Positions 2,720 to 39,468 of a stretch of DNA of 64,000 bases are shown in pieces (within the stretch, counting starts at the first letter, position 1; each line of letters opens with the position of its first letter). A model generated the notes under the pieces. The model was not told the origin of the DNA, ran no database searches, and worked only from the letters and a program-made list of their open reading frames with translations. The translations under genes and the position numbers were made by a program. Origin of the DNA: Candidatus Latescibacterota bacterium (GTDB taxonomy: Bacteria > Latescibacterota > UBA2968 > UBA8231); NCBI GenBank assembly GCA_963422735.1, contig OY730476.1, positions 2,816,001 through 2,880,000 on the forward strand, given 5' to 3'.

Positions 2720-2739
2720 GGGTTTGCAACTTGACTTCC

Positions 2740-3552: not shown

Positions 3553-3643
3553 AGTCTTCCTGCTTCTCTTTACACCTTATGGAATGTTGACACACACAAG
3601 GTCCATCCGTCAGCCCATACGGCGCAAATACTACGCCGCCCAG

Positions 3644-9638: not shown

Positions 9639-10285
9639 CCAACGTGGCCCACTTGGGCGGCGGCTACGCAGAGTCCGCACCCGACCCCGGCCCTACCATA
9701 GCAGCTCTCCTGCAAGCCGCTCGCCCCGGCAGCCCGTCTTCCCGCCTCGTGGTCTTGGGCGGGCCGCCCGGGGTCGGCAAAACCGCCATCGCCCAAGCCC
9801 TCCTCGCGCTCTGCCCAAACACCTTTCTCCTCGACAAAGACCAAACGGCCGCTGGTTTTATCCTCGAAGCGGGCGCACTGCGGGGCGACGCGCCCTCCAC
9901 GGCCTACGGCACTCAGCACTACTGGCAAAAGCTCCGTCCCCTCGAATATGCCAGCACCCTCTCCGCAGCTTGCGCTAACCTCGTCGGCACCCGCCAACTT
10001 CTTCTCGTCGGCGGCTTTGGCCCCGAGCTAGGCGCGGATGCCCTCTGGGAGGGTCTAGCTGCAAACATAGCCCCAGCCGCCCTCCGCGTCCTCCACCTCG
10101 ATCCACCGCCCCTAGACATTTGGCGCGCCCGCATGGCCAGCCGCGGCTCCCGCACCGACGCTCCCTATTTTGCCAATCTCGCGCGAGCCCTCGGCAGTCT
10201 TCCCGTCTGGGCCGGTGCCGTCCGCATCCCGACAGACGGCCCCCTGCACGCGGTCGTCCAACGCGCCCTCAACGCCCTCAGCTAA
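9635..10285 (+). CDS. P-loop kinase / AAA_33-like protein
   Basis: GGPPGVGKT Walker A, LLDKD; GTG overlaps the upstream TGA. Confidence 0.7.
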   Translation: MTNVAHLGGGYAESAPDPGPTIAALLQAARPGSPSSRLVVLGGPPGVGKTAIAQALLALCPNTFLLDKDQTAAGFILEAGALRGDAPSTAYGTQHYWQKLRPLEYASTLSAACANLVGTRQLLLVGGFGPELGADALWEGLAANIAPAALRVLHLDPPPLDIWRARMASRGSRTDAPYFANLARALGSLPVWAGAVRIPTDGPLHAVVQRALNALS

Positions 10286-10311
10286 AGGCACGAGGGTTGT
10301 GTGCATCAAGG

Positions 10312-10341
10312 TTGACTTTTCTCGGTTTTTCCCTTTATCTT
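10312..10341 (+). promoter_or_regulatory. Putative sigma70 promoter of the CNT transporter
   Basis: TTGACT-18 nt-TATCTT, ~10 nt before the ATG. Confidence 0.35.
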
Positions 10342-10351
10342 TTGGGATGTT

Positions 10352-11608
10352 ATGTTAATCGTCCACAGTGCCTTAGGCTACTGCGTTCTCCTTGTTATAG
10401 CCTATCTCAGCGGCCGCCGCACCCGCTCCATTCCCTGGAAAACCATCGGTATGGCCACGGTGCTCCAGCTCCTGCTGGCCGCCATCCTGCTGCAACCAGC
10501 CATCCGCTCGCTGGTGTTTGGTCTCGCCAGCGACTTGACGACCCTACTCAAAAGAACCGCACTCACCGCCAATGAGTCGCTGCTGTTTAGCGGCATGAGC
10601 GCAGAGTCGTTCGTCCGCGAGCACGGGCCAGTAGTCGCCCTCGAAATCGCGGCAATTCTCATCTTTGTGGCCTCGCTTTCGCGTGTGCTCTACCACTACC
10701 GGCTCCTCCCTTGGGTCATCGCCCGGCTCAGCCGGTTCATGCAGAAGTCAATGGGCGTCAGCTCCGCCGAGAGCGTCGGAATGACCGCCAATCTCTTTCT
10801 CGGCATGACCGAAGCCCCGCTCCTGATCCGCCCCTACGTGGCCCGCCTCACCGAAAGCGAGCTGCTGTGCCTGATGATCGGCGGCATGGCCACCATCGCC
10901 GGCACCGTGATGACCATCTACGCGACCATGCTCGGAGCGATCCACCCGGATATTGCCGGGCACCTCTTCGTCGCTTCGCTGATCAGCGCACCGGCTGCCA
11001 TCGCCGTATCCAAGCTCATGATCCCAGAAACGGCACGGGCGGAAACGGCACAAGAGAAGGCGGAACTGCCCCCTAGGGACACCCTCAATGGCCTCGACGC
11101 GGCCGCCCGCGGCGCGGCCGAGGGCATGCACTTGGTGCTCAACGTCCTCGCCATGCTCATCGCCTTTCTCGGACTAGTCGCCTTGGTCAACTATGGCCTG
11201 AGCTATCTCGACGCCCTGTTCAACGGCACGCCAAGTAGCTGGAGCTTGCAAACCATAGCCGGCGTCCTCTTCCACCCCCTGACGTGGTTGATGGGTATCC
11301 CTTGGGAGGAAGCGCGGCTCGTCGGCGAGCTCATGGGCCTGAAAACCATTCTCAACGAATTCGTCGCGTACCTAGCACTCGCCCAGCAGATGGAAGGCAA
11401 CGCCGCCTTGAGCACGCGCTCGTTCATCATCGCCACGTACGCCCTATGCGGCTTTGCCAATTTTGGCTCCGTAGCTATTATGATCGGCGGCATCGGCGGC
11501 ATCGCGCCCGAGCGGCGCGGCGACTTGGCGCGCTTGGGGCTGCGCTCGCTGGTGGGCGGTACGCTCGCGACCATGGCGACCGGCTGCGTGATTGGGCTAT
11601 ACCTGTGA
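10352..11608 (+). CDS. nupC: Concentrative nucleoside transporter (NupC/CNT family)
   Basis: FLGMTEAPLLIRPY, MATIAG, KTILNEFVAY, YALCGFANFGS. Confidence 0.9.
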   Translation: MLIVHSALGYCVLLVIAYLSGRRTRSIPWKTIGMATVLQLLLAAILLQPAIRSLVFGLASDLTTLLKRTALTANESLLFSGMSAESFVREHGPVVALEIAAILIFVASLSRVLYHYRLLPWVIARLSRFMQKSMGVSSAESVGMTANLFLGMTEAPLLIRPYVARLTESELLCLMIGGMATIAGTVMTIYATMLGAIHPDIAGHLFVASLISAPAAIAVSKLMIPETARAETAQEKAELPPRDTLNGLDAAARGAAEGMHLVLNVLAMLIAFLGLVALVNYGLSYLDALFNGTPSSWSLQTIAGVLFHPLTWLMGIPWEEARLVGELMGLKTILNEFVAYLALAQQMEGNAALSTRSFIIATYALCGFANFGSVAIMIGGIGGIAPERRGDLARLGLRSLVGGTLATMATGCVIGLYL

Positions 11609-11660
11609 AACGCAGTGACACTTCGGGCGTCATACACTAGCTAGCTAAAGCGGGAAGCAG

Positions 11661-11909
11661 ATGAAGAGAAAAAAGACGACCTATCGCGCCCGGTTTGACG
11701 GACACCGGCGGCTCGCTGCCGCGGTCATCATCCAAGCCGTCAAAGACGTGCAGACCGCGGATTGCAATCAAGAGCGGCAGACGGCTATCGACTTCCTCAC
11801 CGGGGACATGTGGCCCTTTTCCGATGTGCTCGACCTGCCTTTAGACGGTCGCGCCCTCTGCGAGTACCTACGCACTATGGAGATCGCTTCCACCGAACCC
11901 CTTGGCTGA
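11661..11909 (+). CDS. Small hypothetical protein
   Basis: 82-aa ORF with purine-rich RBS region; RRLAAAVIIQAVKD helix. Confidence 0.55.
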   Translation: MKRKKTTYRARFDGHRRLAAAVIIQAVKDVQTADCNQERQTAIDFLTGDMWPFSDVLDLPLDGRALCEYLRTMEIASTEPLG

Positions 11910-11963
11910 CCTTCGGCAGAAGCGGTATTTCCCGTGGCGCATCTAACCCGGAGACGACCCCTC

Positions 11964-12776
11964 ATGGAACTTTCGCCCGCGCAGATTCGCTTCTTCGAGA
12001 CTTTCGGCTACCTCTACTTCCCGCGGCTTTTTGCCCCCGACGAGATCGCCTGGATCACCGAGGAGTTTGAGATCTCCATCCAAGCCTACGGCAACGGTGC
12101 TCAACACGACGGCACCAAGCGCACCATGTTCGGCGGCCCCATCGAGCACCGCGAGCGGCTTTGCACCCTCATAGACGACGAGCGCATCGTCGGGATCTGC
12201 AACGGCGTCCTCGGCGCGAACTTCAACTACGCCAGCGGCGACGGCAACTACTACAGCGGCGATACCGGCTGGCACCCCGATGGCAATTGGGGCCAGCTTT
12301 TCTCGGTCAAAATCGCCTTCTACTTAGACGACCTGACCCGCGACACGGGCTGCCTGTGCATACTGCCCGGCAGCCACCACCCCAACCACTTCGTCCGCGC
12401 CGAGGGCCTTGACCTCAACAAGTCTATGGAGCTGTTCGGCGTCGAGCCGCGCGATGTCCCCGGCAACCTCGCGCTCGAGACAACCCCCGGCGACCTCGTC
12501 ATCTTCAACCACGACCTCTATCACGCCTCCTTCGGCGGCGACCAGCGGCGGCGCATGTTTACCATGAACCTCACCCGTCCCTGCACCAACTATGCAGACC
12601 AAGCCACCCTCAAAGACTATCTCCGCCAGCACTCTCCCGGCGGCTACCAAGTCGTCACCGGCGGCGGCATGTTCTATCCCACCATGCTCGATACCGCCAG
12701 CCCAGAGCGCATGGTTCATCTGCGCCAATGCGCCGAAGTCCACGACGAGATCTTCCCAGAATTAGCGCGGCATTGA
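11964..12776 (+). CDS. PhyH family dioxygenase
   Basis: FFETFGYL, WHPD, LPGSH, PGDLVIFNHDLYHAS, RRMF. Confidence 0.85.
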   Translation: MELSPAQIRFFETFGYLYFPRLFAPDEIAWITEEFEISIQAYGNGAQHDGTKRTMFGGPIEHRERLCTLIDDERIVGICNGVLGANFNYASGDGNYYSGDTGWHPDGNWGQLFSVKIAFYLDDLTRDTGCLCILPGSHHPNHFVRAEGLDLNKSMELFGVEPRDVPGNLALETTPGDLVIFNHDLYHASFGGDQRRRMFTMNLTRPCTNYADQATLKDYLRQHSPGGYQVVTGGGMFYPTMLDTASPERMVHLRQCAEVHDEIFPELARH

Positions 12777-12807
12777 CGGCCAGCCCACTCGTGTAGATAT
12801 TTTCTAC

Positions 12808-12883
<76 letters not shown>

Positions 12884-12892
12884 TCTTTGCCG

Positions 12893-12925
12893 AGGGGGTG
12901 CGGATGCCGTTTCCGCATCCCCTTT
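12893..12925 (+). terminator. Putative intrinsic terminator after tRNA
   Basis: AGGGGGTGCGGA / TCCGCATCCCCT stem followed by short T run. Confidence 0.55.
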
Positions 12926-12964
12926 GGTTGCGGATTCGCGCCTTCCCATCGCCCTGCCTCATCC

Positions 12965-12993
12965 TTGACATTTCGCAGTTCAAAGCATAAAAT
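12965..12993 (+). promoter_or_regulatory. Sigma70-type promoter for TPR-efp-acc operon
   Basis: TTGACA-17 nt-TAAAAT. Confidence 0.7.
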
Positions 12994-13037
12994 AGCCTCT
13001 CGTTTCAGCCGCCTTAGCACCTCCCATTCCCATCGCC

Positions 13038-13853
13038 ATGGCCGACTCCATAGCCAAACTGGAAAAAGCATTCCGACGCGATCCGGATTCCCCGCGCTTT
13101 GCTCGCCTCGCCGATCTCTATCTCAAGCGCGGGCGCATCGAGCGAGCCCTCGAGCTTTGCCAAAAGGGCTGTGCGAATTTTCCCGATTACGCCACTGGCT
13201 TTATCGTCCTCAGCAAGTGCTATGAGAAACGGGGGGCCTTGGAAGAAGCGCGCGAGGCCATGGGGCAAGCCCTGCGACTCGACCCGGAAAACCCCGGCGG
13301 GTACAAGCGCCTCGCCCACCTCTTTGAGCAACTCGGCGTCGCGCCGCTGGCCTTGAAAAGCCTACGCCAAGCCGCATACCTCGATCCTTTCGATGCCTCT
13401 CTAGCAGAGCGAATCGACCGCTTCAGCAGCCGAACCCGCCAAGACGCGCCCGCGCCCGAAGCCGAAGAGTTTGTCGCCAGCACGCTCCCGGAAGCCCTCG
13501 AAGCCGAAACTCCTCAGCCCCAAGCCCTGCCGCCTCGGTCGCCAGAAGACCACGAGGACCTGTACGGCGACACCAACGACAGCGAATTGCTCCGCCTCTT
13601 GCAGGAGATCGAAGAAGAGAAAGCCGCCGAACCGGTGCCCGCACCTGAGGAGCCGCCCACCCCGGCCAACAGCGAGCCGAGCGCACCGAAACGCAAGCGC
13701 ATCGCCACCATGACGCTGGCCGAGATCTACACCACTCAGGGCTTGACCCAGAAGGCGATAGAAACGTATCGCGAGCTCCTCGAACAGGAGCCGACCAACA
13801 TCATCATCCGCAGCAAGCTAACTTCGCTACAAAAAGACAGCAACGCACACTAA
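13038..13853 (+). CDS. Tetratricopeptide repeat protein
   Basis: FARLADLY...ALRLDPEN; C-terminal TMTLAEIYTTQG TPR. Confidence 0.8.
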   Translation: MADSIAKLEKAFRRDPDSPRFARLADLYLKRGRIERALELCQKGCANFPDYATGFIVLSKCYEKRGALEEAREAMGQALRLDPENPGGYKRLAHLFEQLGVAPLALKSLRQAAYLDPFDASLAERIDRFSSRTRQDAPAPEAEEFVASTLPEALEAETPQPQALPPRSPEDHEDLYGDTNDSELLRLLQEIEEEKAAEPVPAPEEPPTPANSEPSAPKRKRIATMTLAEIYTTQGLTQKAIETYRELLEQEPTNIIIRSKLTSLQKDSNAH

Positions 13854-13863
13854 CGGGAGCGAT

Positions 13864-14421
13864 ATGGCAGACACCACGGATTTTAGAAACGGTTTTACTA
13901 TGTCTCTCGACGGTGCGATCTTCTCCATCGTCGAGTTTCAGCACGTCAAACCGGGCAAGGGCAGTGCCTTCGTGCGCACCAAGCTCAAAAATACCAAGAC
14001 AGGTGCCGTGCTCGACCGCACCTTCCGCTCGGGCGACAAGGTCGAAGCAGTCCGGCTCGAAAGGCACCAGATGCAATATCTATATTCCGACCAAGGACTG
14101 TACTACTTCATGGACTTGGACACCTACGATCATATCCCGGTGTCCGCAGAGATCGTCGGCGCGGCAAGTAACCTCCTCAAAGAAGGCGAGAACGCTTTCC
14201 TCCTCATAGCAGGCGAGGAGGTCGTCGCCGTTGACCTACCCAACTTCGTCTCCCTTGCCGTCTCCCACACCGAACCGGGCGTCAAGGGCGACACCGCCAC
14301 CGGCGCGGTCAAGCCAGCCACCTTAGAGACCGGCTACGTGGTACAAGTGCCACTCTTTATCAATAGAGGCGATCGGCTCAAGGTCGATACCCGCACTGGC
14401 GAATACGTAGAGCGCGTTTGA
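13864..14421 (+). CDS. efp: Elongation factor P
   Basis: HVKPGKGSAFVRTK, PGVKGDT, KVDTRTGEYVER. Confidence 0.97.
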   Translation: MADTTDFRNGFTMSLDGAIFSIVEFQHVKPGKGSAFVRTKLKNTKTGAVLDRTFRSGDKVEAVRLERHQMQYLYSDQGLYYFMDLDTYDHIPVSAEIVGAASNLLKEGENAFLLIAGEEVVAVDLPNFVSLAVSHTEPGVKGDTATGAVKPATLETGYVVQVPLFINRGDRLKVDTRTGEYVERV

Positions 14422-14439
14422 GAAAGGACGACACCTCCT

Positions 14440-14892
14440 GTGAACGAAGGCAAGCTGCGCAAACTGCTAGAGCTTTTCCACGATAGCGACATAGAAGAGT
14501 TAGAGATCCAACACAGCTTCTGGCACGGTACGCGCATCCGCCTGGCCCGCAACCGTGCGCCCTCACCAGTGGCACCCGCCGCGCTAGCGCCCATCGCGCC
14601 CACGCCCACTGAACCCACTGAGCCAGCGCCTACCGAAAAAACCGACGACGGTCTGCACGAGGTGCTCTCGCCCATGGTCGGCACGTTTTACCGGGCTGCC
14701 TCGCCCGAGGCCGACCTCTTTGTGCGCGAGGGGCAGCGCGTCGAAAGCGGCCAGACCCTCTGCATCATCGAAGCCATGAAGATCATGAACGAGATTCCAG
14801 CGGATATCCAAGGCGAAGTAGTCGAGATCCTCGTCGGCGACGCCCAGCCCGTTGAGTACAATCAAGCCCTGTTCAAAATTCGCCCCAGCTAA
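14440..14892 (+). CDS. accB: Biotin carboxyl carrier protein
   Basis: [17 protein letters not shown]. Confidence 0.95.
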
Positions 14893-29000: not shown

Positions 29001-29286
29001 TCAAGCGGATTGGGTGGGCGGCTCTCGTTCGAGGCGGCCGACATTGACTTCGCGGAAGGCTTCGACGATCTGAACCGGGAGTTGGTGTGGCTCGGCAATG
29101 CAAGCGGCCATCTGCCGCACCCGCTGCATAGACAGCTGCGATGGGAAGCAGTGCGCGATAGGCGGCCGTGCAGCGAGCCTGTCGCCAGCCCAATGGCGTG
29201 AGGGGATAGTCCACAAGGCGATGGGAAAACTCGCCGGTCTGATTGGCGCGGTTTTTGCCGTGGCGCGCCAGCCACACCGCGTTCAT
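29001..29286 (-). pseudogene. Histidine phosphatase (PGAM-like) remnant
   Basis: MNAVWLARHG...DYPLTPLGWRQA..AVYA, then another frame QRVRQMA..I...FREVNVG; truncated; ATGA overlap with upstream gene. Confidence 0.7.
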
Positions 29287-30347
29287 CGGTTCAGAATCTC
29301 CAAGACGTGTTCTAGCAGAGGCTGCTCCTCGGCGGCCAGTGCGTCGAGCATCTCGCTCGCCCGCGTGAGCGTGTCAGGCCGTTGATGCGTTTTCCAGCGC
29401 AACAGCACTAAGCGCAAACTGCGCGTCTTGCGCTCGATGGCACCAAAGCGCAGCCCAAGCTGCGCCGCCGGATCGAGATAGCCCCGCGCTTCCATGTACT
29501 GCAACCGCGCCTGCATACCCGTTTTGTGCTCCCACAGGATGCGCCATGAGATGTCGCGATAGGCGGCCGGGTCTTCCAGTTCGCGCCGGAGGAACACATA
29601 GACGTCCCTGCCCCAAAAGCCACCCTCTCGCGGCGCAGCCAACAGCCGGTAACGCTGCGCCGTGTCGGCGGCGAACAGATAGTCGGCCAACTGTTCGGCC
29701 ACTGCACACGGGTCGAAGGTATACCATTGGTCGGGCAAATACTTGTAGAGAAATACTCGCGGGCGATCTTCCATCGACGAAAGAAACCATGCCGGCAGGG
29801 GCCGGCCGGCTTGCGATACCTGCTGCATGTGGCCTTCGCGGGTGAACGAACACGCCCGTTCCATGACGACAAACGGTACGCGAGAGATCGCGTATCCACC
29901 CTGTTGGTCGAAGCCGGACAGCAGCAAGGTCCGTTCCTCGGTATCGTAGCCGGACACGAGCACTTCGTGGATGAAGTGATGCCGCTGATAGTGCGGTCGG
30001 TTGGGCAGATAGAAGAAATCGACATCGGTCTGGACGTAATAGCCGCGGTCAATACACGAGACGATCCATGAGATAATATCCGCGGTAGCCAGCCCTAGCA
30101 GGTGGCGGTCAACGGTCTGGACGTCGAGAAAGGGACAGGTGGAAAAGTAGAGATGGCGCACCTCATGGCGGGTGCAGAAGGGATGGGTGTAGAACTTCAG
30201 CTCTTCGCCGGGGAAATTGAACAGTTGAATGTGGGTGCTGTATAGCCACGGCAGGTAGGTATCCGCTTGGGCGAGGATGGACAGCGGGTACGCATGGAAT
30301 AGATAGGAACGGATCGGCGGCGGATGCAGGGGCAGGGTGTGCTGCAA
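29283..30347 (-). CDS. BtrH-like (papain/NlpC-P60-fold) protein, candidate ACP-dependent acyltransferase
   Basis: WIVSCIDRGYYVQTDVDFFYLP...HHFIHEVLVSGYD resembles BtrH_N-type domains; likely TTG start at 30347, right after the ACP. Confidence 0.55.
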   Translation of the reverse strand: MQHTLPLHPPPIRSYLFHAYPLSILAQADTYLPWLYSTHIQLFNFPGEELKFYTHPFCTRHEVRHLYFSTCPFLDVQTVDRHLLGLATADIISWIVSCIDRGYYVQTDVDFFYLPNRPHYQRHHFIHEVLVSGYDTEERTLLLSGFDQQGGYAISRVPFVVMERACSFTREGHMQQVSQAGRPLPAWFLSSMEDRPRVFLYKYLPDQWYTFDPCAVAEQLADYLFAADTAQRYRLLAAPREGGFWGRDVYVFLRRELEDPAAYRDISWRILWEHKTGMQARLQYMEARGYLDPAAQLGLRFGAIERKTRSLRLVLLRWKTHQRPDTLTRASEMLDALAAEEQPLLEHVLEILNR

Positions 30348-30351
30348 GGAG

Positions 30352-30609
30352 TCAATCCGCCATCCGCTTGCCGACGACGTATTCAGCCAGCGCATTCACC
30401 GAGCCAAACAGTTCGACGGTCAGTTCGTCGTCTTTGACCGCGATGCCGAAGGCCTCCTCAATGGCGGCGACGATCTCTAAGGTGGCCATCGAATCGAGCT
30501 CCATACCCCCAAACAGGGCCTCGTCGTCGGGGATCTCCGCCGGGTCCACGTCCAATCCAAGGGCAGCGACGATCAGGCCCTTGATCTGCGCTTTTAATTG
30601 CTCGGACAC
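30352..30609 (-). CDS. Acyl carrier protein
   Basis: 85 aa, acidic; LFGGMELDSMATLEIVAAIEEAFGI with phosphopantetheine Ser. Confidence 0.9.
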   Translation of the reverse strand: MSEQLKAQIKGLIVAALGLDVDPAEIPDDEALFGGMELDSMATLEIVAAIEEAFGIAVKDDELTVELFGSVNALAEYVVGKRMAD

Positions 30610-32486
30610 GATGCAGACTCCTCGGCAAAATGGTTGACCACCGTATCCACCATCCGCTGTTGGCCTTCCTCTGACAAAATCGACACCGCCGGCAAGCTAA
30701 AACGATCTTCAAGCCGATTTAGGATACGGGCGATTTCTTCCGCGGTCATCGAATCCGCCTTGACGAAAGTGCGGCCGTAAGCAGCGCGGATGTACTTTTT
30801 TTGGTCGCTCATCGCCAAAAGCAGGGTCGGTGCTTTGGCAAGGGCGCGCAGGCTGTTGATGGTGTCTTGGATATACTCGTCGGCGTCAATGCTGTTGACT
30901 ACGAGGATACACGCATCCGGCTTGGTGCCCAGCAGAAAGGCCGTCGAGGTCAAAGAATGGGTGCGGTGTTCATGCACATCGTAGGGAATAGTGCCCGACT
31001 GCGAGCCGACCACGATGAGATCGGGCTGCTTCTGCTGGCTGAGTTGCCGCAGTTTGTAATCCAGATAGGGGACGTAGTATTGCAACGGCAGCGACACATT
31101 AGGGGCGTATCCCATAGGGAAGGCCCCGTCCATGCCAAACAGTGCCGCATGGTGCTCGGTGCCGATCTGACCGACTCTGTAACCGAGGTGCAAAAGGTGG
31201 CGGCGCAGGATCAGTTGCAAGGTGAACTTGCCCTGTTGGGCACTCGTGCCAAACACGCCCAACACTGGCACATCAACCGGACCATAGGCCGGCTCGGCTT
31301 GGAGGGCTTGCTGCACGTCGTCGGACGCGACCGAGGGATACGTCAGATGTAGCCCCTTCTTCCGGGCAAGATCGTATAGGTCGCCATACTCGTCTTGGGG
31401 CACGGCGAGGAAACTGAAAACATGGCAGTTGTGCTCCAAGGCGGTCTCAATGGATGTACGCAGCACGTCTTGCTTGCCAATCCGCCCTAACTGATCGACA
31501 TAGCCAAGGATGAGCGTATCCGCTTCCTCAAGGACCGAAGCGAGCCGAGGCCGAATGCGTACCCCGATGGCGGGTAGGCCAAGTACCGTGCCCGCATCTT
31601 GGCCTACCAGCCCCTTGCCCACCGGATCGGCAATACCCGCAATCTCAAAGGCGAGCAAATCTCGCGCCCGGACCAGCGCATGCATTTCCTTGTTGAACGG
31701 GTAGAGTGCCGCCTTCTGAATCCAAGTGAAGTCCGAGGATGGAGCGCAAGGAAGAGACACAGTCGTCGGACGCGGGCGCTCACGCTGGATTAGTTCCGGC
31801 GTCCCTTCTAGTGCGTTGGCCTGCAACAAATCGCGCACCTGTTCCAGCGGCGCACCCGGATGCGCTTGGCGAATCATGGCGACCACGCCAGTGACGTGCG
31901 GCGCGGCGAAGCTAGTGCCCGACATCATCAGATACGGCGGATCACTCCAGCAAACCCGTTGGGCATCGCCACGGGCGACGCATTCGATCTCGTGCCCCGG
32001 ACGGTAGTAATACCCATAGCGGCCCCGCACCTTGCCTCCCGCAACGCCGATGACGTCCGGCAAGACCGCCGGATAACTTTCGCGCCCGTCGTTGTGTTCG
32101 GCCGCTACCAGAATGACGCCGGCTTCGCGAGCTTGGCGACAGACATCGGCGAGCCCGTCGCGGAAAGCAACATCCGTCGTGCCCAAGCTGAGGTTGACCA
32201 CATCCATCCGCTGCTCAATCGCCCAGCGGATCGCCGCGAGGAGAAAGGGAGGGTCGGCCGTTAGGGATTCATCGAAGAGGCGAACATCGTACAAAGTTGC
32301 GGTCGGCGCGATCTGGAGAATAATGCCCGCGCAAGCCGTGCCGTGACCCGCACCAACCGCCGCTTGCCGAGGCACCGAATCGAGGCACACCTCGTGAACC
32401 GCGCCGATCTTTTCGTGTGTCGAGTCAATACCCGAGTCGATGATCGCGACGCGGACGGGATGATCAGATTGATTCGTCAAGAGCAT
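30594..32486 (-). CDS. S8 subtilase fused to DUF1611/TIGR04066-like P-loop domain
   Basis: Triad IIDSGID / GHGTACAG / SGTSFAAPHV; no signal peptide; C-half KAALYPFNKE...GLVGQDAG, PVLGVFGTSAQQGKFTLQL, GYRVGQIGTE, PDLIVVGSQSG. Confidence 0.8.
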   Translation of the reverse strand: MLLTNQSDHPVRVAIIDSGIDSTHEKIGAVHEVCLDSVPRQAAVGAGHGTACAGIILQIAPTATLYDVRLFDESLTADPPFLLAAIRWAIEQRMDVVNLSLGTTDVAFRDGLADVCRQAREAGVILVAAEHNDGRESYPAVLPDVIGVAGGKVRGRYGYYYRPGHEIECVARGDAQRVCWSDPPYLMMSGTSFAAPHVTGVVAMIRQAHPGAPLEQVRDLLQANALEGTPELIQRERPRPTTVSLPCAPSSDFTWIQKAALYPFNKEMHALVRARDLLAFEIAGIADPVGKGLVGQDAGTVLGLPAIGVRIRPRLASVLEEADTLILGYVDQLGRIGKQDVLRTSIETALEHNCHVFSFLAVPQDEYGDLYDLARKKGLHLTYPSVASDDVQQALQAEPAYGPVDVPVLGVFGTSAQQGKFTLQLILRRHLLHLGYRVGQIGTEHHAALFGMDGAFPMGYAPNVSLPLQYYVPYLDYKLRQLSQQKQPDLIVVGSQSGTIPYDVHEHRTHSLTSTAFLLGTKPDACILVVNSIDADEYIQDTINSLRALAKAPTLLLAMSDQKKYIRAAYGRTFVKADSMTAEEIARILNRLEDRFSLPAVSILSEEGQQRMVDTVVNHFAEESASCPSN

Positions 32487-32527
32487 CTTTTTGGTATGCG
32501 TGACGCAGGCCACATTCAGGGTTACTA

Positions 32528-33393
32528 CTACTCTCGGTTAAAGTAGAAGGTTAATTCTGGCTTTTGGCGGGCGCGTATGGCAATCGTTGAATCCATGCCA
32601 ATCGCCGTCGCTAAGTCCGCTCTGGCCAACGCCGTTTCACCGCGCCAGCGCGAATGCGGGCTCTATAATACCACGCAACACCGGTTTCGTCGTCGAGGGA
32701 TACCGCCCGATTCAGCGCGTCAATTCCTTCGTCTAGTCGGCCTGTACCGATAAAGAGCATGCTGCGCTTGATCCACGACGCGAGGTGATCCGGGTCGTGC
32801 TGCAACGCGGCCGCAAGGGCCGCTTCAGCAGCCTCATAATCCTTTTCTTGCATGTGGAGCGAACCAATACGTCCCCAGAAATGCGCCAAATGGGCGTCCG
32901 TGGAATCGGCGACCAAGCAGGTTTTGTAAACCTGTACGGCTTCCTCTACATGTCGTAGATCGCGTAGAAGATCGCCCGTTCGCTGGCATAATCCCACGTT
33001 TTTGGGGTCTAAGCGGAACGCCGCAGAATAAAATGCTAGTGCTTGAACTGAATCCTTCATGGCCAGACAGGCATCGCCCTTGCTCTTCCACAGCCAAGGA
33101 TCGTTTTCGTCATATCGCAGAGCCGTATTCAGCGCGTCGAGCGCACGGCGGGGATCCTCCAGCGATAGGTAACCCTTTGCAAGTGCTTTCCAAGTGCGCA
33201 ACGAATCACCTTCTAAAGCAAGCACTTGTTCATAAGCGCGAAGGGCCATCCGGTATTCACGATTCGCCATAAGTCGGTCTCCGTGTTGCAAGTAGGTATC
33301 TCCATCCGATAGATCATACCTTACTATTATGTACAACAGTGAAAGAATAGTTATGGCATTGATCACCACAGTAGAGACGATCCAGTTTTTCAC
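32528..33393 (-). CDS. Membrane-anchored TPR protein (1-nt frameshift near 32645)
   Basis: N-terminal TM, then TPRs; the track ORF stops at 32611 but the adjacent frame continues RGETALARADLATAIGMDS...NRE, ending in TAG TAG TAA. Confidence 0.7.
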
Positions 33394-34133
33394 AACACAG
33401 GATTCAACCTATAAACGCTAGATGAGAAGACCACTTCTGCTACTATATTGGCAACGCCGTGTAGCACAACACAGGATCCAATTGAACGAGATCGTTCATA
33501 GTACATAACAAGCACGAGACCCAGTCCTAAATGGGGTAAGAGTGCTAAAATCTTCCCTTCCATGTTGTAGTGACATAATGCAAACAGTACGACATTTGCC
33601 ACAACAGCCCATACAAAAGGCAAATGCCTTTTGAGATAGGGATACAGAAGACCTCTAAATAGCCATTCCTCTACTAAGGGAATGACGATGACACCCTGTA
33701 ATACTCTTATAATTGATAAATCGATTAGGTGCATCACCGGAGGGATATAACCGGCCGATCTAGATAGATTCGCTGGAACCGTAATCAACACGACTAGGAG
33801 AACAGCCAGCCAGACCCCCGTACCCATACCATATAGAGATAGCTTGATTTGCTTAGGCACGGTTCCTACCATGAGATGATAACAGGTAAGCATCAAAACC
33901 ATAGCGGCCGCATGGGAACCAAAAAGGTAGATCGTGACGACTTTCATATCCCGCAACAGCAAGGATTCCTCAGCCCAGTTATCGACATAAGTGTTCCTGA
34001 GTGCAACAAAAAAGAATAAAGTGGCGAACTGTAGGACGACCAAGATGAGGTTCCATGGACACTCCCATTCTTGCTTTCGCATGGTGTCCCAAGTGTTGAG
34101 CACGGTTCTATAGACTGATCTCATGGTATGCAC
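33390..34133 (-). CDS. CPBP (CAAX/Abi) intramembrane glutamic protease
   Basis: PLVEEWLFRG, FALCH, HGVAN. Confidence 0.85.
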   Translation of the reverse strand: MHTMRSVYRTVLNTWDTMRKQEWECPWNLILVVLQFATLFFFVALRNTYVDNWAEESLLLRDMKVVTIYLFGSHAAAMVLMLTCYHLMVGTVPKQIKLSLYGMGTGVWLAVLLVVLITVPANLSRSAGYIPPVMHLIDLSIIRVLQGVIVIPLVEEWLFRGLLYPYLKRHLPFVWAVVANVVLFALCHYNMEGKILALLPHLGLGLVLVMYYERSRSIGSCVVLHGVANIVAEVVFSSSVYRLNPVL

Positions 34134-34196: not shown

Positions 34197-34481
34197 TCAA
34201 TCCTTGCCTTTGCGCCCTGTTTGCGCTTGCAATAAAGGTGCGCCTCCCAAGGCTTCCTGTTCGAGCGAAATGTTCGGATCGATGAACCATTCGACCGGCT
34301 GGCCATACAGATCGGCAAGACGGATCAGCTCTGGCGTGAAGACGGGCCGCTCACCTGATTCAATGCGGCTGATCGTGGATTGGTCGCGACCGAGCTTCGC
34401 ATAGGCGGTCTCTTGGCTGATCTGCCGGCGTTTGCGTACAAAGCGCAATCGCCGACCGATCTCTTCGGGGGTTATGGGCAT
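34197..34481 (-). CDS. XRE-family HTH regulator
   Basis: IGRRLRFVRKRRQISQE...DQSTISRIESGER...LADLYG. Confidence 0.85.
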   Translation of the reverse strand: MPITPEEIGRRLRFVRKRRQISQETAYAKLGRDQSTISRIESGERPVFTPELIRLADLYGQPVEWFIDPNISLEQEALGGAPLLQAQTGRKGKD

Positions 34482-34562
34482 AATAGATGCTCCGGGCATT
34501 GGATGTGGAAGGTATGGCATGGCCAAAATAGCGAAGGCTCGTTTTATGGAAGAAGGCTGAGT

Positions 34563-35474
34563 TCAGGGGCCTAGACCTCCAGCGAGGATGTCAGTTGCGA
34601 GGTAAATGAGGGCGTTTGTGCATCCATGAACGGCGGTGCATACGATCAGAGATCGCGTCCGTTCGTAAATAAGAGCCAAGGCTACACCTACTATAAAGGC
34701 AGGCACTAGTCTTGCCGGATCTAGGTGAACCAAGGCGAAAATCAACGAAGAGATCAATGTAGCCTTGAGCAAGCTAGTCTGCTGACGTAGAGCAGAAAAG
34801 AAAAGCCGGCGAAAAATGAGCTCTTCGACAAAAGGAAGTAAGATGATTAAAGATAGAACGTGTAAAACTATAAGCGTCGCAGGATAATCAAGTACGAAGG
34901 TTCGTTCTATCCTACTAGGGTGCAACAAATATAGATAGCTAATCCATACTGGACTGAGCATTAAAGACCAGAATACATAGAGCCGATCTCTAGGACGATT
35001 TACATACCGCCACTGATAGTAAACGGCGATAGGCTCAATACTGCTGTGTTTCTTGATAGCAATCCTAATCACAACAATAGCACCTATCCCCATTCCCACA
35101 GACCTTGAAGCTCTCATACCAGAATCAAAATCAAATTGGGCTATATTTATTGCAATAATTAGAATACAAAATACAACTATATACAAAGACGCACCCTTAA
35201 AATTGTGAGTGAATATGTAGGGCAGAATTACCAAATAGAACAAGGCTCCCAATAGAGTGCTTATAGTAATCTGATATTCTCGATATAGATCAAATCTATC
35301 TGTTGAGTAGTTCGTATCTACACCCATCTGATGTACGATAGACTCAAACAGTACTGCAGCCATACCAGTTGTGTGTCTGACCAGTAGGCCGGTTAGACAT
35401 CCGATCACGACGATACGGGTTATGGTCATAGAATTACCCAAAGCGGAACAAGTGTTGGTGTTGCCAAACTTCAA
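34563..35474 (-). CDS. CPBP (CAAX/Abi) intramembrane glutamic protease
   Basis: PFVEELIFRR, FALVH, HGCTN; many TM helices; start may be 35429. Confidence 0.85.
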   Translation of the reverse strand: MKFGNTNTCSALGNSMTITRIVVIGCLTGLLVRHTTGMAAVLFESIVHQMGVDTNYSTDRFDLYREYQITISTLLGALFYLVILPYIFTHNFKGASLYIVVFCILIIAINIAQFDFDSGMRASRSVGMGIGAIVVIRIAIKKHSSIEPIAVYYQWRYVNRPRDRLYVFWSLMLSPVWISYLYLLHPSRIERTFVLDYPATLIVLHVLSLIILLPFVEELIFRRLFFSALRQQTSLLKATLISSLIFALVHLDPARLVPAFIVGVALALIYERTRSLIVCTAVHGCTNALIYLATDILAGGLGP

Positions 35475-35492
35475 AAATTCTTCCCAGATGTA

Positions 35493-35522
35493 TAGGGCTG
35501 AGGCCTTGAGGCCTCAGCCCTA
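35493..35522 (-). terminator. Perfect hairpin 3' of the precursor gene (stabiliser or attenuator)
   Basis: TAGGGCTGAGGCCT-TG-AGGCCTCAGCCCTA; no U tract on the coding strand. Confidence 0.65.
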
Positions 35523-35538
35523 ACGTTAGTCCCGACCC

Positions 35539-35949
35539 CTAATAACTTCCAGCCTGAGCGTTGTTGTGGTCGTCTGCATATGGGTCATTACAGGTGCCCC
35601 CATAATACCCACCATTATTACTGCCACTCGGAGGTATAGACCCTGCCGAACTCGAACCGCTGTTCTCCGTAGCCCAATCCCAAACATCTTCTGCGGCATC
35701 CGCTATGGCATTCCCCGCTTCCTCTAACGCGTGGGTAATCTGTTCCTCTGCTTCGGAGGCCCATACGACTAGGGCAACACCAGCACCAACGACTGGATTT
35801 GCAGTGGCTGCGGTAGCCGCAGCACCAATTGCCGCAACCGTACATCCGTGTTTCACGTCGTGCAAGTCGAGTCCGTCCTTTTCGTTGTGACAAGCCTCTA
35901 TGGCTTTAGTATCGTAAACCCTCCGAGGGGGTTTGCAGAGAATCTGCAT
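35539..35949 (-). CDS. Putative bacteriocin/RiPP precursor (136 aa)
   Basis: GGAGG RBS; leader-like N-terminus ending KAIEA-C; Ala/Gly/Val hydrophobic core; Ser/Gly/Asn-rich tail; sits between the ABC exporter and CPBP genes. Confidence 0.7.
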   Translation of the reverse strand: MQILCKPPRRVYDTKAIEACHNEKDGLDLHDVKHGCTVAAIGAAATAATANPVVGAGVALVVWASEAEEQITHALEEAGNAIADAAEDVWDWATENSGSSSAGSIPPSGSNNGGYYGGTCNDPYADDHNNAQAGSY

Positions 35950-36125
35950 GTGTTTCCTCCGTTTTAATGGGTGGTTTTTATTAAACTTGTGAAGATACGG
36001 TGCTATGCATTGTACGACTCACTCCTTTCTCCTATGGGGCTGCATAGCTGTGTACCCCGCTGTGTACGTGTGCATCGGATTATGCCTCGCAAGCATCCTC
36101 CTGATGAACGCCTTGCGAAAACCCT

Positions 36126-37841
36126 TCATATCCGCGCCATTTTGTCAAACAACGCGGCATAAGCTCCGCCGGTGTTCAGCAGCCAATCGTGGGTCCCTTG
36201 TTCGGCTACGCTTCCGCTTTCCAATACGACGATCTGATCGGCCGCTCGAATGGTTGACAGACGATGGGCAACGATGATCGTGGTGCGCCCTTCCTGCACC
36301 GTCTTGAGTGCCTCGTGAATGTGGTATTCCGACTCCGCATCCAAGGCCGAAGTCGGTTCGTCCAAAATCAGAATGGGCGTATCCATCAACAGAACGCGTG
36401 CCAGCGCAATGCGCTGCCTTTGTCCCTCGGAAAACTTGACGCCCTGTTCTCCAACTAGGGTATCGTATCCCTGGGGCAGAGTAGTTATAAAGTCATGGAT
36501 ATAAGCAGCACGGGCAGCGTCCTCTATCGTCCTAAGAGGAATATCCTGATTAAACGCCAAGTTCTCTTTAATGCTGCCCTGAAACAGAGTACTTCCCTGT
36601 AAGGCAAAGCCGATCTGCCGCCGCAGCGACGGCAAGCGAAACGCCCGGATGTCCTGCCCGTCAATGGCGACACTGCCTTCTGTCGGGTCATAAAATCGGG
36701 GGACCAACTTGGCCAACGTCGATTTTCCTGACCCGCTTCTGCCTACTAAGGCTGTCGTCGTACCCGCTTCGATAACCAAATTGATCCGCCGCAAGACCGG
36801 GTGCTGGCCATCGTAGGATAAACTCAGTTCATTGAATTCAACTTGACCCGCCGTAATCGTGAGTGGCGGTGCTTTGGGATCATCTTGGATGGCCGGACGT
36901 ATGTGGTAGATTTCAAAAAAGCGGTTGATATGCACCAGAGTCAGTTCAATACTGCGAATGAGCTCGATTAAATTCTTGATCGGCCCATAGAGAAAACCCA
37001 CGTACGCCGTGAAGGCCATAAAACTACCCAAGGACAAATTCCCCGAAAGAATCTGTGCCCAACCGTACCAGCTATAGGCCAAGGTCCCGCTCGTATTAAT
37101 GAGCCCTCCAACAAACCCCGATCCACCCGAAAATAGAGCCGACCGGACGCGAAGGTTGGCGAGGACAGTGAAGAGGCCCTCCAGTTTCTCGTAAAACCTC
37201 GCTTCCAATCCTAGCGCCTGCACGGTCCGAATACCGTTGAGCGACTCATAGTTCTTCGCCGATAGCTCAGCGGAACGCTCCGCGATTTTCTCGGAGAAAC
37301 GGCGCATATACTTGCGGGTAATAACCACAAGCAATGTATCGAAAGGCAAAACAGCTATACTGATAAGTGCTAACTTCCAGTTGATGTAGAATAGAATCGG
37401 CGGGAAGATCAGTAGCTGAAGGGAGTTCATAATGAAGGTGTTTATGATGCGGATTACGCTGCTAATAGAACTCCTCATATCCCTGAAACGCGAGAGGATT
37501 TCCCCGGTCTCTTTCTGATCGAAAAAACTAAAATCGAGCGACCGTACATGTCGATAGAAAAGAGATTGGAAATCGAAACCAAGACGTACACCCACGCATT
37601 GGCCAAAATAGCTACTAAGGAAACTCACGCCTCCCAATCCTGTGGAAACAGCGGCCCCAAGCAGCAGAGCAAACGCTAGTAAATTCCAATCTTTATGAGG
37701 ATACACATCGTCAATGAGTATTTTTGTGAAATACGGTCCTGGTATCTGCAACAACAAGACCAAGACACCGACTAGTAGAGACTGAGCGATATAGCGCCAG
37801 TACGGTCGCAAAAGCCGTATGATCTGTATAATTTCATTCAT
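36126..37841 (-). CDS. ABC exporter, TMD+NBD, no C39 peptidase domain
   Basis: GRSGSGKST, FSEGQRQR, LILDEPTSALD, VAHRLST. Confidence 0.92.
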   Translation of the reverse strand: MNEIIQIIRLLRPYWRYIAQSLLVGVLVLLLQIPGPYFTKILIDDVYPHKDWNLLAFALLLGAAVSTGLGGVSFLSSYFGQCVGVRLGFDFQSLFYRHVRSLDFSFFDQKETGEILSRFRDMRSSISSVIRIINTFIMNSLQLLIFPPILFYINWKLALISIAVLPFDTLLVVITRKYMRRFSEKIAERSAELSAKNYESLNGIRTVQALGLEARFYEKLEGLFTVLANLRVRSALFSGGSGFVGGLINTSGTLAYSWYGWAQILSGNLSLGSFMAFTAYVGFLYGPIKNLIELIRSIELTLVHINRFFEIYHIRPAIQDDPKAPPLTITAGQVEFNELSLSYDGQHPVLRRINLVIEAGTTTALVGRSGSGKSTLAKLVPRFYDPTEGSVAIDGQDIRAFRLPSLRRQIGFALQGSTLFQGSIKENLAFNQDIPLRTIEDAARAAYIHDFITTLPQGYDTLVGEQGVKFSEGQRQRIALARVLLMDTPILILDEPTSALDAESEYHIHEALKTVQEGRTTIIVAHRLSTIRAADQIVVLESGSVAEQGTHDWLLNTGGAYAALFDKMARI

Positions 37842-38229
37842 CTGTTGCTTTTCGGCCCGACCCCTCCATCTCTGGATCGCGCTGTAAGTTCGCCTACCTT
37901 TTTCTCATCAAAGTAGCTAAAGCTCAAGCCACTCAGATGTTGATATAGGCCATAACCAACTCCGATACCTACACGCATACTGAGATTGTGGTCAAAATAG
38001 CCGCGCAAATGGCTGACCAATCCCGTCATTACTGCTACGCCGGCATTGAAAACGAGGACGAATTCCAGCAGGCTAACACTCTTGGATGGGTAAACATTGT
38101 CGATAAGAATTTTCGTGACGTAGGGTGGTATCAAGGCAATCAGTGCTAAAAGGCCACTCACGGCTACAGATTTCATCATCAACCCTCGATGAGCCCGTAT
38201 CAGTGCCATTCCCCTAAGGTACTCGTCAT
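37838..38229 (-). pseudogene. Internally deleted second ABC exporter half
   Basis: PPYVTKILIDNVYP and LSFSYFDEKKVGELTARSRD parallel PYFTKILIDDVYP and LDFSFFDQKETGEILSRFRD of the next gene; ends after ~130 aa. Confidence 0.7.
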
Positions 38230-39468
38230 CTCCGCTGACTCCTGCCGATGGAAATCGTGTCTCGCCACCGGCTCCACAGACTGCAACAGCTTCTTCCACA
38301 ACAGCTCCACGATCCTTCCCCTCTCTACCACCACCTTAACCTCGGCATTCATCCCATACGCCAGCGCATACACCTGCTTCCCATCCCACACCTGCGGATC
38401 GCGAATCGACACTTTTATTGGATAGACGGTGCCCTCCGCAGCGTTTCCCACCACCGGCACAGCCGATACCGCTTCCACCGTCCCCTCAAACACCTTGTAT
38501 TCCGTATGCGGAAACGCATTCACATACAGACGCGCCGGCTGCCCGATCTCTATCTTGGGCAGGTCGGTTTCCTTAACCATAATCCGCGCTAGCCACCCAT
38601 CGGTCTGAGCTAATTCGAGAATCGCTTCTCCCTCTTGGAGACGATCCCCCACCCGCTGCTCCAACTGACCCGCCAGCACCGTGCCCGCCGCCGGTGCCCG
38701 GATCGTGTGCTTGGCCAGTCGGTTTTCCAACCGCCGGCGTTCCTGCTCTATCTTCTCGCGCTGTTTTTCCAAGGTGTGGAGTTCGGCTGCTCGTCCTTCC
38801 ACGGCCTGAAGCCGCTGCTGGATTCGTTCCAGATCGGCTTCTGCCTGCTGCAACAGGGCGTTGCTCAGCCGCACCGGCAGTAGTTGCTCCAATGGCTGGC
38901 GTACCACACGGACGGGCAACACACCGGCCGAGTAGATGCTTTGTTCGGCCACGACCTGCTCCTGTTGGATGCGCATTCGCTCTACTTGCCGCTGGGCATG
39001 GGCGACCTCGGCGTGCCTAATGTTGCGCTCTTGCTCCATCTGCTGCTGAATGGCTCGCTGCTGGCTCTGGTTTACTTCGAGGTCCTTTTCTGTTTTTTGT
39101 AGTTGGATCCGCCAGTCAGTATCGTCGAGCGTGACCAACGGCTGCCCCTTTTCTACCGGCTGCCCCTGTCGGACGTGTATCTGCTGGATGATCCCCGCGA
39201 TCTCGGCCTTGACCCGATGCCGATGCCGCGGCTCGATGACGCCCTTGCCCTCCACGGTCATATCCATGCTGAAATGCCAGCTCAACATGCCGGCGAGCAC
39301 CAGCAAGCACCCCACCAACATCAGAATCACCAAGAGAAAGGAGCGCACGAAACGGAAGCCTGGTCCGTGGAATTCTTCCCCTATACTCAGGACAGTGCGG
39401 CGGCGATCCTGCAATGAGGGACGGTCGTTTTGCACCAGCACTTGGGATTCAGCGGTTAGAGCCGGCAT
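38200..39468 (-). CDS. HlyD-family membrane fusion protein
   Basis: N-terminal TM, VRQGQPVEKGQPLVTLD, coiled coil, IRAPAAGTV, GMNAEVKV. Confidence 0.9.
   Translation of the reverse strand: MPALTAESQVLVQNDRPSLQDRRRTVLSIGEEFHGPGFRFVRSFLLVILMLVGCLLVLAGMLSWHFSMDMTVEGKGVIEPRHRHRVKAEIAGIIQQIHVRQGQPVEKGQPLVTLDDTDWRIQLQKTEKDLEVNQSQQRAIQQQMEQERNIRHAEVAHAQRQVERMRIQQEQVVAEQSIYSAGVLPVRVVRQPLEQLLPVRLSNALLQQAEADLERIQQRLQAVEGRAAELHTLEKQREKIEQERRRLENRLAKHTIRAPAAGTVLAGQLEQRVGDRLQEGEAILELAQTDGWLARIMVKETDLPKIEIGQPARLYVNAFPHTEYKVFEGTVEAVSAVPVVGNAAEGTVYPIKVSIRDPQVWDGKQVYALAYGMNAEVKVVVERGRIVELLWKKLLQSVEPVARHDFHRQESAEMTSTLGEWH

Follow-up and report, generated by a model that had tools for sequence, protein, structure and literature searches.

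In a 64,000-nucleotide stretch of a Candidatus Latescibacterota genome (assembly GCA_963422735.1, contig OY730476.1, positions 2,816,001 to 2,880,000; hereafter the window), a 136-residue open reading frame (ORF) lies in a cluster that also encodes an ATP-binding cassette (ABC) exporter, an acyl carrier protein (ACP) and an enzyme in which an S8 subtilisin-like protease is fused to a DUF1611 domain. We consider it very probable that the ORF encodes a precursor. Overall, we favor with some reserve the explanation that this precursor is a leader-guided substrate of the S8-DUF1611 enzyme and the ACP, and that it is exported as a membrane-active product. A first-pass annotation, made from the letters of the window, had already described the ORF as a substrate that resembles a precursor, carries a short leader at its N-terminus and is tied to the S8-DUF1611 enzyme; that description is upheld here by the finding of the same leader at homologous loci.

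The shared leader and its enzyme

The leader was sought in 12,221 reading frames of up to 200 amino acids, taken from the window and from 40 loci of enzyme homologues (about 16 kb each, chosen to span 27-87% identity and not a random sample). A strict leader pattern occurs in 17 of these frames, all of them small ORFs inside the clusters, as against none in reversed frames and a mean of 0.35 in shuffled ones (n=20). With a hidden Markov model (HMM) of the 17 leaders, five more ORFs were gained at E ≤ 0.018, while no reversed control did better than an E of 1.4. The leader is thereby found firmly in 17 of the 40 loci, and in 22 if weak matches are counted; the five extra loci were accepted by eye, their scores alone not being separated from the control. 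The consensus reads M-x-x-L-x-K-(P/K/R), then 7-12 residues, then (I/V/L)-(E/Q/L)-(A/G)-Y, followed by mostly acidic residues. Across loci the leader ends in Tyr in 23 of 27 cases and in Cys in four, the window ORF among the latter; its family has mostly Cys where other leaders have Tyr. When the HMM was run on the whole 4.95-Mb genome (96,353 frames), only the window ORF fell below E 0.5.

The cores that follow this leader are unrelated: some are Cys-rich, some are Gly/Ala-rich and hydrophobic with a terminal Cys, and others are Gly/Ser-rich or helical and acidic. Three loci with enzymes 84% identical to that of the window (L039, L040 and L041) adjoin unrelated cores bearing the same leader, which argues for leader-guided maturation. 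The first-pass annotation had proposed collecting the small ORFs next to homologous S8-DUF1611 genes, and the collection yields just such a common leader, M..L.K...(I/V/L)(E/Q)A(Y/C), in front of differing cores. A conserved leader, hypervariable cores and a conserved adjoining enzyme are together the general mark of leader-dependent precursors like those of peptides made on the ribosome and then modified after translation (RiPPs).

The ORF is a real gene and more than a chance frame, because it has homologues and because its synteny is kept in three other genomes, where the order HlyD-ABC-precursor-CPBP-...-S8-DUF1611-ACP-BtrH recurs (L002, L003/L042 and L004/L038). Its features are borne out as first described, namely a GGAGG ribosome-binding site, residues 1-19 (MQILCKPPRRVYDTKAIEA) followed by Cys20, a hydrophobic stretch at residues 36-64, an acidic helix, the tail, and four Cys residues at positions 5, 20, 36 and 120. 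The first 19 residues are basic and polar, with a grand average of hydropathy (GRAVY) of -0.25 over residues 1-20, and the isoelectric point (pI) of the leader is 8.8, compared with 4.1 for the core. Residues 36-64 are rich in Ala, Gly and Val (GRAVY 1.60), and Gly, Ser and Asn make up 52% of residues 97-136.

The family is rare, since very large protein searches gave few homologues: nine among 5.8 billion clustered proteins, and 11 clusters at E ≤ 0.001 in a profile search of 1.84 billion representative sequences. One of the 11 is a giant protein (P0134, 5774 aa), in which 19 stretches match profile positions 64-126, covering only the acidic helix and the Gly-rich tail; this match is probably a repeat or low-complexity similarity. 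Three relatives lie in genome contigs, all of them from Candidatus Latescibacterota metagenome-assembled genomes, and the family is present in 4 of 168 genomes of the phylum, all of one genus. The nine homologues share an invariant N-terminus. Over 19 family members the invariant positions are M1, L4, K6, R9, A19, H30, H34 and H73, so that only the three His are without variation in the core, the first two in HxxxH spacing. Cys5 is replaced in 4 of the 19, and Cys36 and Cys120 are variable across the family.

The enzyme beside these leaders is itself well conserved. Protease and DUF1611 domains are fused in all 41 aligned homologues. All 41 keep the S8 catalytic triad and 40 of them the Walker A Lys, and the phosphopantetheine-site Ser is present in all 33 aligned ACPs. 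For the S8 domain, the top NCBIfam match is QhpE (E 3.1e-41; score 141 against a cut-off of 165), the nearest solved structure is subtilisin BPN', and there is a weak match to the PatA/PatG family (E 3.7e-9; cut-off 421 bits). The C-terminal 384 residues, assigned to PF07755, align with positions 2-360 of the 361 in TIGR04066 (E 1.4e-34) and score 119.7 bits against a cut-off of 200; by this comparison the window enzyme is a distant full-length homologue of TIGR04066 and not an equivalog. The predicted model of the domain (predicted local distance difference test, pLDDT, 87) matches the structures 2g0t, 2obn and 7xrj (Foldseek E 8e-14 to 6e-12, TM 0.57-0.75) at sequence identities to DUF1611 structures of 14-17%, and the nearest solved relative, 7xrj, was deposited as 'N-acetyltransferase DgcN'. 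At E ≤ 1, the ACP encoded in the window matches 19 models of carrier proteins but not TIGR04069. In complex predictions of the full enzyme with precursor residues 1-40, the median score was 0.31 (mark 0.32) and every control scored 0.00; this result is given no weight in either direction.

A number of observations count against the explanation that we favor. No recognisable precursor occurs in 18 of the 40 loci, and none of the ORFs in the 16 kb examined around the second S8-DUF1611 gene of the same genome (locus L049) was recognised as bearing the leader. The loci were sampled via the S8-DUF1611 gene, so that the leader's link to the enzyme rather than to the ABC pump is a putative one. The bare leader pattern has three matches genome-wide against six in reversed sequence, which is chance level, and one further leader-bearing ORF of this genome (L078) has a split ABC gene and a gene for a kinase-like protein as neighbors but lacks a nearby S8-DUF1611 gene. 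Of 25 precursors scanned against Pfam, none belongs to a family; no NCBIfam precursor family was matched, and none of 31 precursors scanned reaches TIGR04065. The AlphaFold model of the precursor is of low confidence (mean pLDDT 58). Finally, the core is strongly acidic (17 Asp and Glu against 2 Lys and Arg), and this, like the three His as its sole invariant residues, would also suit a non-toxic, metal-binding protein.

Known relatives and proposed maturation

Among the known systems closest to this one is CLI_3235 of Firmicutes (TIGR04065-TIGR04066-TIGR04069-TIGR04068), which likewise combines in one cluster a small precursor with a short leader, a TIGR04066-type protein, a carrier, a subtilisin-like protease and an ABC exporter. 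In the system of Paenibacillus polymyxa, the S8, TIGR04066 and TIGR04069 genes are separate and accompanied by a radical SAM enzyme; for its product SacP23, the account gives a predicted leader of 19 aa, a mass of 3404 Da compared with 4455 Da predicted, and an N-terminus blocked to Edman degradation (PMC10731318). The window differs in that the protease and TIGR04066-like domain are fused, no radical SAM enzyme is encoded, and the precursor is a 136-aa, acidic protein that is not Cys-rich. Scoring against TIGR04065 (a 34-position model requiring at least 26 bits), which the first-pass annotation had suggested on the strength of the leader's resemblance, was negative: there is no match at E ≤ 1 for the window ORF, nor at E ≤ 10 in its nine homologues, in 21 other leader-bearing ORFs or in a six-frame search of the genome. 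The 116-aa core, in which only Cys20 is largely conserved, also departs from the short Cys-rich core with a radical SAM maturase (TIGR04068) of that system. Because there is neither a TIGR04065 match nor a radical SAM gene in the cluster, the window system, as judged from its proteins, is a distant, fused relative of the CLI_3235 system that has no radical SAM enzyme, and is not a member of it. The HlyD protein of the window cluster is explained by the host being diderm.

The first step of maturation would be removal of the leader, and by analogy with other leader peptidases it is probable that the S8 domain is responsible. QhpE, for example, removes a leader in the cytoplasm, and its substrate then leaves through an ABC pump that has no peptidase of its own (PMC7876137). 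The cytoplasmic S8 domain of the window enzyme would cut at the IEA-C-H junction. Cleavage after Cys20 would place Ile at P4, Glu at P3, Ala at P2 and Cys (Tyr or Phe in relatives) at P1, leaving an N-terminal His21. We lean somewhat towards this site over the invariant Ala19, which is the less likely of the two, because the residues found there (hydrophobic at position -4, Glu or Gln at -3, then Ala at -2, with Tyr, Phe or Cys at -1) would suit the P4-P1 pockets of a subtilisin, and would parallel PatA, reported to cleave after G(L/V)E(A/P)S (PMC10885120).

Cleavage after Ala19 (or Gly35) was the proposal of the first-pass annotation, which would expose an N-terminal Cys for acylation in mimicry of a lipoprotein; in the version weighed here, Cys20 would be acylated on its thiol and/or amine. 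Ala19 is indeed invariant (19/19) and position 20 is Cys in 16 of the 19 family members; the cluster encodes an ACP and acyl-transfer enzymes, and both CPBP proteins weakly match LnsB, a protein of lipoprotein N-acylation (E 0.12 and 0.0092, far below cut-off). The LnsB matches, however, are generic CPBP similarity. Position 20 is Tyr or Phe in the other three family members, and Tyr ends 23 of 27 leaders across loci; a thiol is therefore not essential at this position, and thiol chemistry would be no general requirement. In addition, the sequence before 'IEAC' has no hydrophobic signal-peptide h-region and no proper lipobox, as would be found in a bacterial lipoprotein. The proposal is weakened by these observations and now seems improbable.

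What follows cleavage is more speculative. The DUF1611 domain and the holo-ACP may add a carrier-bound acyl or aminoacyl group, for which the freed N-terminus would be the likeliest target, and a BtrH-type acyltransferase may take part in about half of the clusters. We regard N-terminal capping as a tentative idea with the balance of probability against it. It is favored among the possible modifications because the nearest solved DUF1611 relative is the N-acetyltransferase DgcN, and it is the most economical hypothesis because the protease is fused to DUF1611, the ACP is constant, and the N-terminus of SacP23 is blocked. DgcN acylates an amine, with a pantetheine thioester as the donor. Fusion residues 258-639 have the same predicted fold, but the window domain is joined to a protease in one protein and has an ACP as its partner, rather than a free CoA thioester.

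The partner genes of the enzyme repeatedly encode proteins that move carrier-bound acyl groups onto amines, although the kind differs by cluster: BtrH_N+DUF4872 proteins (in about 20 of the 40 loci), GNAT proteins, or a nonribosomal peptide synthetase condensation domain with a peptidyl carrier protein. An ACP gene is present in 33 of the 40 loci by BLASTP, or 36 by clustering, and mostly lies directly beside the enzyme gene. In butirosin biosynthesis, BtrI and BtrH carry out acyl transfer, and the window has a comparable pairing of a stand-alone carrier with a BtrH_N/DUF4872 protein; it differs in that the acceptor would be a peptide instead of an aminoglycoside, and in having no BtrJ-type ATP-grasp loader.

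An implication of the fusion is that one enzyme could both cleave and cap, the subtilisin domain cutting the leader and the DgcN-like domain moving the ACP-borne group onto the new alpha-amine. This more specific scheme is a little less likely still than capping in general. If true, it would mean that N-capped ribosomal peptides and small proteins form a large class not described before, with one shared leader and hundreds of unrelated cores, expanded in Latescibacterota and related to the Firmicute TIGR04066/TIGR04069 system.

Alternatives to capping are activation of a carboxylate by the P-loop domain, and cyclisation. The S8 domain could act as a PatG-like transamidase, or the DUF1611 domain could load a carboxylate onto the ACP, in either case giving a head-to-tail circular bacteriocin. 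PatG is reported to cut before AYDG and cyclise (PMC10885120), and the leaders described here end in AY followed by acidic residues; moreover, the S8 domain has its weak PatA/PatG match, the precursors of L069 and L071 repeat ...VQ(A/L)YGE at the C-terminus, and a ring would fit the Edman block of SacP23 (PMC10731318). PatA and PatG are also S8 proteases guided by short sequences, and the PatA site resembles (I/V/L)(E/Q)A(Y/C). Yet the similarity to these proteases is weak, and the window has neither a heterocyclase nor a multi-core precursor. The window protein also has no such C-terminal motif, its tail being variable and disordered, and to our knowledge the circular bacteriocins described so far are all far shorter than its 116-residue core. 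Cyclisation is thus the least likely of the alternatives that we considered.

It is also conceivable that the product is an unmodified class-II-like bacteriocin or microcin, from which the leader is simply removed, and that the DUF1611, ACP and BtrH proteins act on something else. Pfam and NCBIfam scans found no Radical_SAM domain among the 11 cluster proteins, and the cluster scans gave no cyclodehydratase and no lanthionine enzyme. The core resembles Gly/Ala-rich pore formers, and one of ten homologues weakly matches the E492-group microcins (NF051486; E 0.035), the window protein itself having no match. Against this stands the constancy of the partners: protease and DUF1611 domain are fused in every aligned homologue and an ACP gene accompanies most of the enzymes (at least 33 of the 40 loci), which points to one pathway acting on one substrate. 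We consider an unmodified product rather unlikely, and prefer the explanation in which enzyme and ACP act together on the precursor.

The TIGR04066/ACP 'peptide maturation system' has been known for more than 10 years from comparative genomics, but its chemistry was never assigned. The window presents the fused protease-DUF1611 form of this system, which is very common in an uncultured phylum, and the recognisable leader makes its substrates findable; they range from Cys-rich peptides to 130-residue helical proteins. If the ACP-dependent step were solved, ribosomal natural products would gain a new maturation reaction, and many candidate antimicrobial proteins of Latescibacterota would come within reach. 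Our literature search returned no paper joining DUF1611 and RiPPs, the DUF1611 papers found being unrelated, and a paper on sponge Latescibacterota gives antiSMASH classes only.

Nature of the proposed exported product

The first-pass annotation had pictured the core as a long protein rather than a short Cys-rich peptide, and model and composition agree that it is helical and partly hydrophobic. In the AlphaFold model, helices at residues 29-49, 52-64 and 67-96 are predicted at pLDDT 65-84, with the leader and tail disordered. The exported product would accordingly be an acidic protein of three helices, in which a hydrophobic Ala/Gly hairpin and the three invariant His are combined with a Gly/Ser tail that is flexible, and it is probably a secreted membrane-active protein. 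Export would be through the peptidase-less ABC/HlyD pump: the alignments of the ABC protein to TIGR01193 and TIGR03796, two models that include a peptidase, start at model positions 143-154, so that it begins at the membrane domain with no N-terminal C39 peptidase domain, and the leader has no GG/GA motif, in departure from double-glycine systems.

Outside the cell, the product may act as a membrane-active, microcin-like bacteriocin, with self-protection given by both CPBP proteins and perhaps also by the TPR protein. CPBP (Abi) proteins have a role in bacteriocin immunity. We put the chance that the product is a bacteriocin at about even. A secreted microcin-type antagonist is favored because of the export genes, the two intact CPBP proteases, the hypervariable cores of sister clusters and an excess of non-synonymous changes between two strains. 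The last point comes from a near-identical strain (run X7), which differs from the window at 16 positions between 35128 and 37000, eight of them inside the 411-base precursor gene. Seven precursor codons are changed, six of them non-synonymously (I3A, V11I, L27F, C36G, D88G and C120Y, with one silent), whereas a stretch of 875 bases in the ABC gene holds two differences; neither Cys5 nor Cys20 is altered. This is a single pair, and the comparison is anecdotal.

Class IIb microcins such as MccE492 are acidic, hydrophobic, Gly/Ala-rich proteins of diderm bacteria with a Gly/Ser-rich C-terminal tail and ABC/HlyD-type export. The predicted window product shares the acidity, the Gly/Ala richness, the Gly/Ser tail and the type of pump, but the cluster has no double-glycine leader, no C39 domain and no siderophore-attachment genes.

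Another possibility is that the product is a small exported protein that is not toxic, for example a signal, or a subunit that binds metal or bears a cofactor, and that it matures in the manner of QhpC, which is processed by QhpE and exported by QhpF (PMC7876137). The two systems have in common an S8 leader peptidase, a small protein and a peptidase-less ABC pump, and QhpE is the closest named relative of the S8 domain. The low pI of the core and its invariant His30, His34 and His73 would fit such a role. On the other hand, the enzyme family serves hypervariable cores that often stand in tandem (three copies in L058, and a pair in both L051 and L055), as is typical of antagonistic peptides, and CPBP genes accompany the precursor in all four of the loci that hold its family. 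The cluster has no homologues of QhpD, QhpG, QhpA or QhpB, the substrate is unrelated to QhpC, and no partner subunits are encoded nearby; the codon changes in the strain pair, for what one pair is worth, also argue against this role. A non-toxic protein is the strongest of the alternatives to the explanation that we favor, although we would still call it unlikely.

Gene cluster, distribution and other precursors

The cluster consists of 11 genes on one strand, with the precursor gene between the exporter genes and the CPBP genes (Table 1). The remnant of a second ABC exporter gene corresponds to about the first 120 residues, overlaps the end of the HlyD gene, and is missing in the syntenic loci L038 and L042. 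CPBP protease 1 has visible EExxxR, FxxxH and HxxxN motifs in its translation, and is a candidate immunity or processing protein. The BtrH counterpart in L042, and BtrH-like proteins of other S8-DUF1611 loci, pass both BtrH_N and DUF4872. The histidine phosphatase remnant has a frameshift near 29150 and is cut after about residue 98 of 217 by a convergent gene of 801 aa; in L040 the intact gene lies at 3030-3683, adjoining a BtrH-like gene.

Table 1. Features of the precursor gene and its cluster (positions are those of the window; residues are those of the protein named)
Feature	Position	Strand	Remarks
HlyD-family periplasmic adaptor	38200..39468	minus	HlyD_3 E 3.9e-18; TIGR01843 E 1.3e-37, below cut-off
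Second ABC exporter gene, remnant	37868..38227	minus	matches residues 2-121 of the intact exporter at 40% identity
ABC exporter	36126..37841	minus	571 aa; transmembrane and nucleotide-binding domains
GGAGG ribosome-binding site	35956..35960	minus	6 nt before precursor ATG; read from sequence
Precursor ORF	35539..35949	minus	136 aa; ATG start; read from sequence
Precursor leader	35890-35949	minus	residues 1-20
Precursor acidic/His segment			residues 21-35
Precursor hydrophobic hairpin	35758-35844	minus	residues 36-64
Precursor acidic helix			residues 65-96 (74-92 singled out in the first-pass annotation)
Precursor Gly/Ser/Asn tail			residues 97-136
Stem-loop	35494..35521	minus	right after precursor stop; 12-13 bp stem, 4-nt loop
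CPBP (Rce1-like) intramembrane protease 1	34563..35474	minus	PF02517 E 4.9e-20
XRE-type helix-turn-helix regulator	34197..34526	minus	HTH_31 E 5.3e-13
CPBP intramembrane protease 2	33390..34133	minus	PF02517 E 3.5e-18
Membrane-anchored TPR protein	32611..33393	minus	start overlaps stop of CPBP protease 2
S8-DUF1611 fusion	30594..32513	minus	639 aa
S8 subtilisin-like domain			fusion residues ~18-235; D26, H57, S201; cytoplasmic
DUF1611/TIGR04066-like P-loop domain			fusion residues ~258-639; Walker A G422-K429
Acyl carrier protein	30352..30609	minus	phosphopantetheine-site Ser in LDSM motif
BtrH-like protein (BtrH_N/DUF4872 family)	29283..30395	minus	BtrH_N E 5.2e-6, below cut-off
Histidine phosphatase gene, remnant	29004..29286	minus	frameshifted and truncated; intact in related cluster L040

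The stem-loop behind the precursor gene has a minimum free energy of -30.6 kcal/mol (z -3.45), and only 1 of 200 shuffles is as good. A simple terminator scan did not call it, and it is possibly an attenuator or an RNA-stability element. A promoter scan gave one weak site, on the wrong strand and no better than shuffles, and no promoter was assigned. Three short contigs from run X11, which is only tentatively labelled as RNA, cover positions 34921-35122, 35485-35733 and 35899-36080, two of them including ends of the precursor gene; as expression cannot be read from contigs, no conclusion is drawn from them.

A look-up in a protein atlas gave best scores of 0.79, to unrelated clusters, and a scan of metagenome contigs with the family alignment gave 110 pattern matches, none of which encodes a relative. 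A Pfam match to RTBV_P12 (E 6.7e-4, below cut-off) was rejected as noise, as were NCBIfam matches to XdhC, TIGR04500 and others among the precursors and cluster proteins.

The S8-DUF1611 fusion is widespread in the phylum: at E ≤ 1e-20 it occurs in 90 of the 168 genomes, and a single genome can have as many as seven listed matches, some of them fragments. At least 711 protein clusters at 90% identity match it, and public annotation names them no more specifically than 'S8 family serine peptidase' or 'epimerase/dehydratase family protein'. In-frame 'stops' were reported inside some enzyme homologues; in one case, L065, comparison with the ORF call suggests that the match overruns the true stop by a few bases.

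The genome of the window has two copies of the fusion. The second (G000:C1:1218202-1220076, locus L049) is 59% identical and is again accompanied by an ACP; its cluster also encodes a GNAT protein, a DUF5128 beta-propeller, a BtrH-type protein and HlyD. The leader-bearing ORF at L078, 8190-8744 (-) (G000:C1:4887192-4887779; MKKLTKRN...VFGYH...), resembles the precursor of L061, and has the look of a substrate that is processed in trans or of part of a cluster that has decayed.

Radical SAM genes were found in at least one of the other loci (L063) among 99 neighboring proteins. This count is a lower bound, as 99 of 133 unannotated ORFs were scanned against Pfam; the other 34 are mostly near-duplicates in L045/L047, ORFs of L064/L065 and ORFs far from the enzyme gene. 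L063 also encodes a 52-aa Cys-rich precursor at 6085-6243 (+), which weakly matches two families, the Clo7bot Cys-rich peptides (E 0.0059) and the FlmA RiPPs (E 0.021), in both cases below the cut-off.

Some loci hold several precursors with a shared leader and diverged cores. There are three tandem copies in L058 at 2397-3397 (+), and two copies each, 1.5-4.3 kb apart, in L051 at 11272-13152 (-) and L055 at 9763-14549 (-). The precursors of L069, 7772-8182 (+), and L071, 13219-13602 (+), are relatives of 127-136 aa with a leader, an acidic stretch, a Gly/Ala hairpin and acidic helices; the leader-end motif recurs at their C-terminus as ...DDP(L/M)VQ(A/L)YGE, where a second protease site is possible. 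Cys-rich precursors occur together with DUF5128/DUF4934 six-bladed beta-propeller genes in L051, L053, L055, L056 and L075, and hydrophobic precursors ending in Cys occur with Yip1-domain membrane proteins, a redoxin and a glycosyltransferase in L043, L044 and L047.

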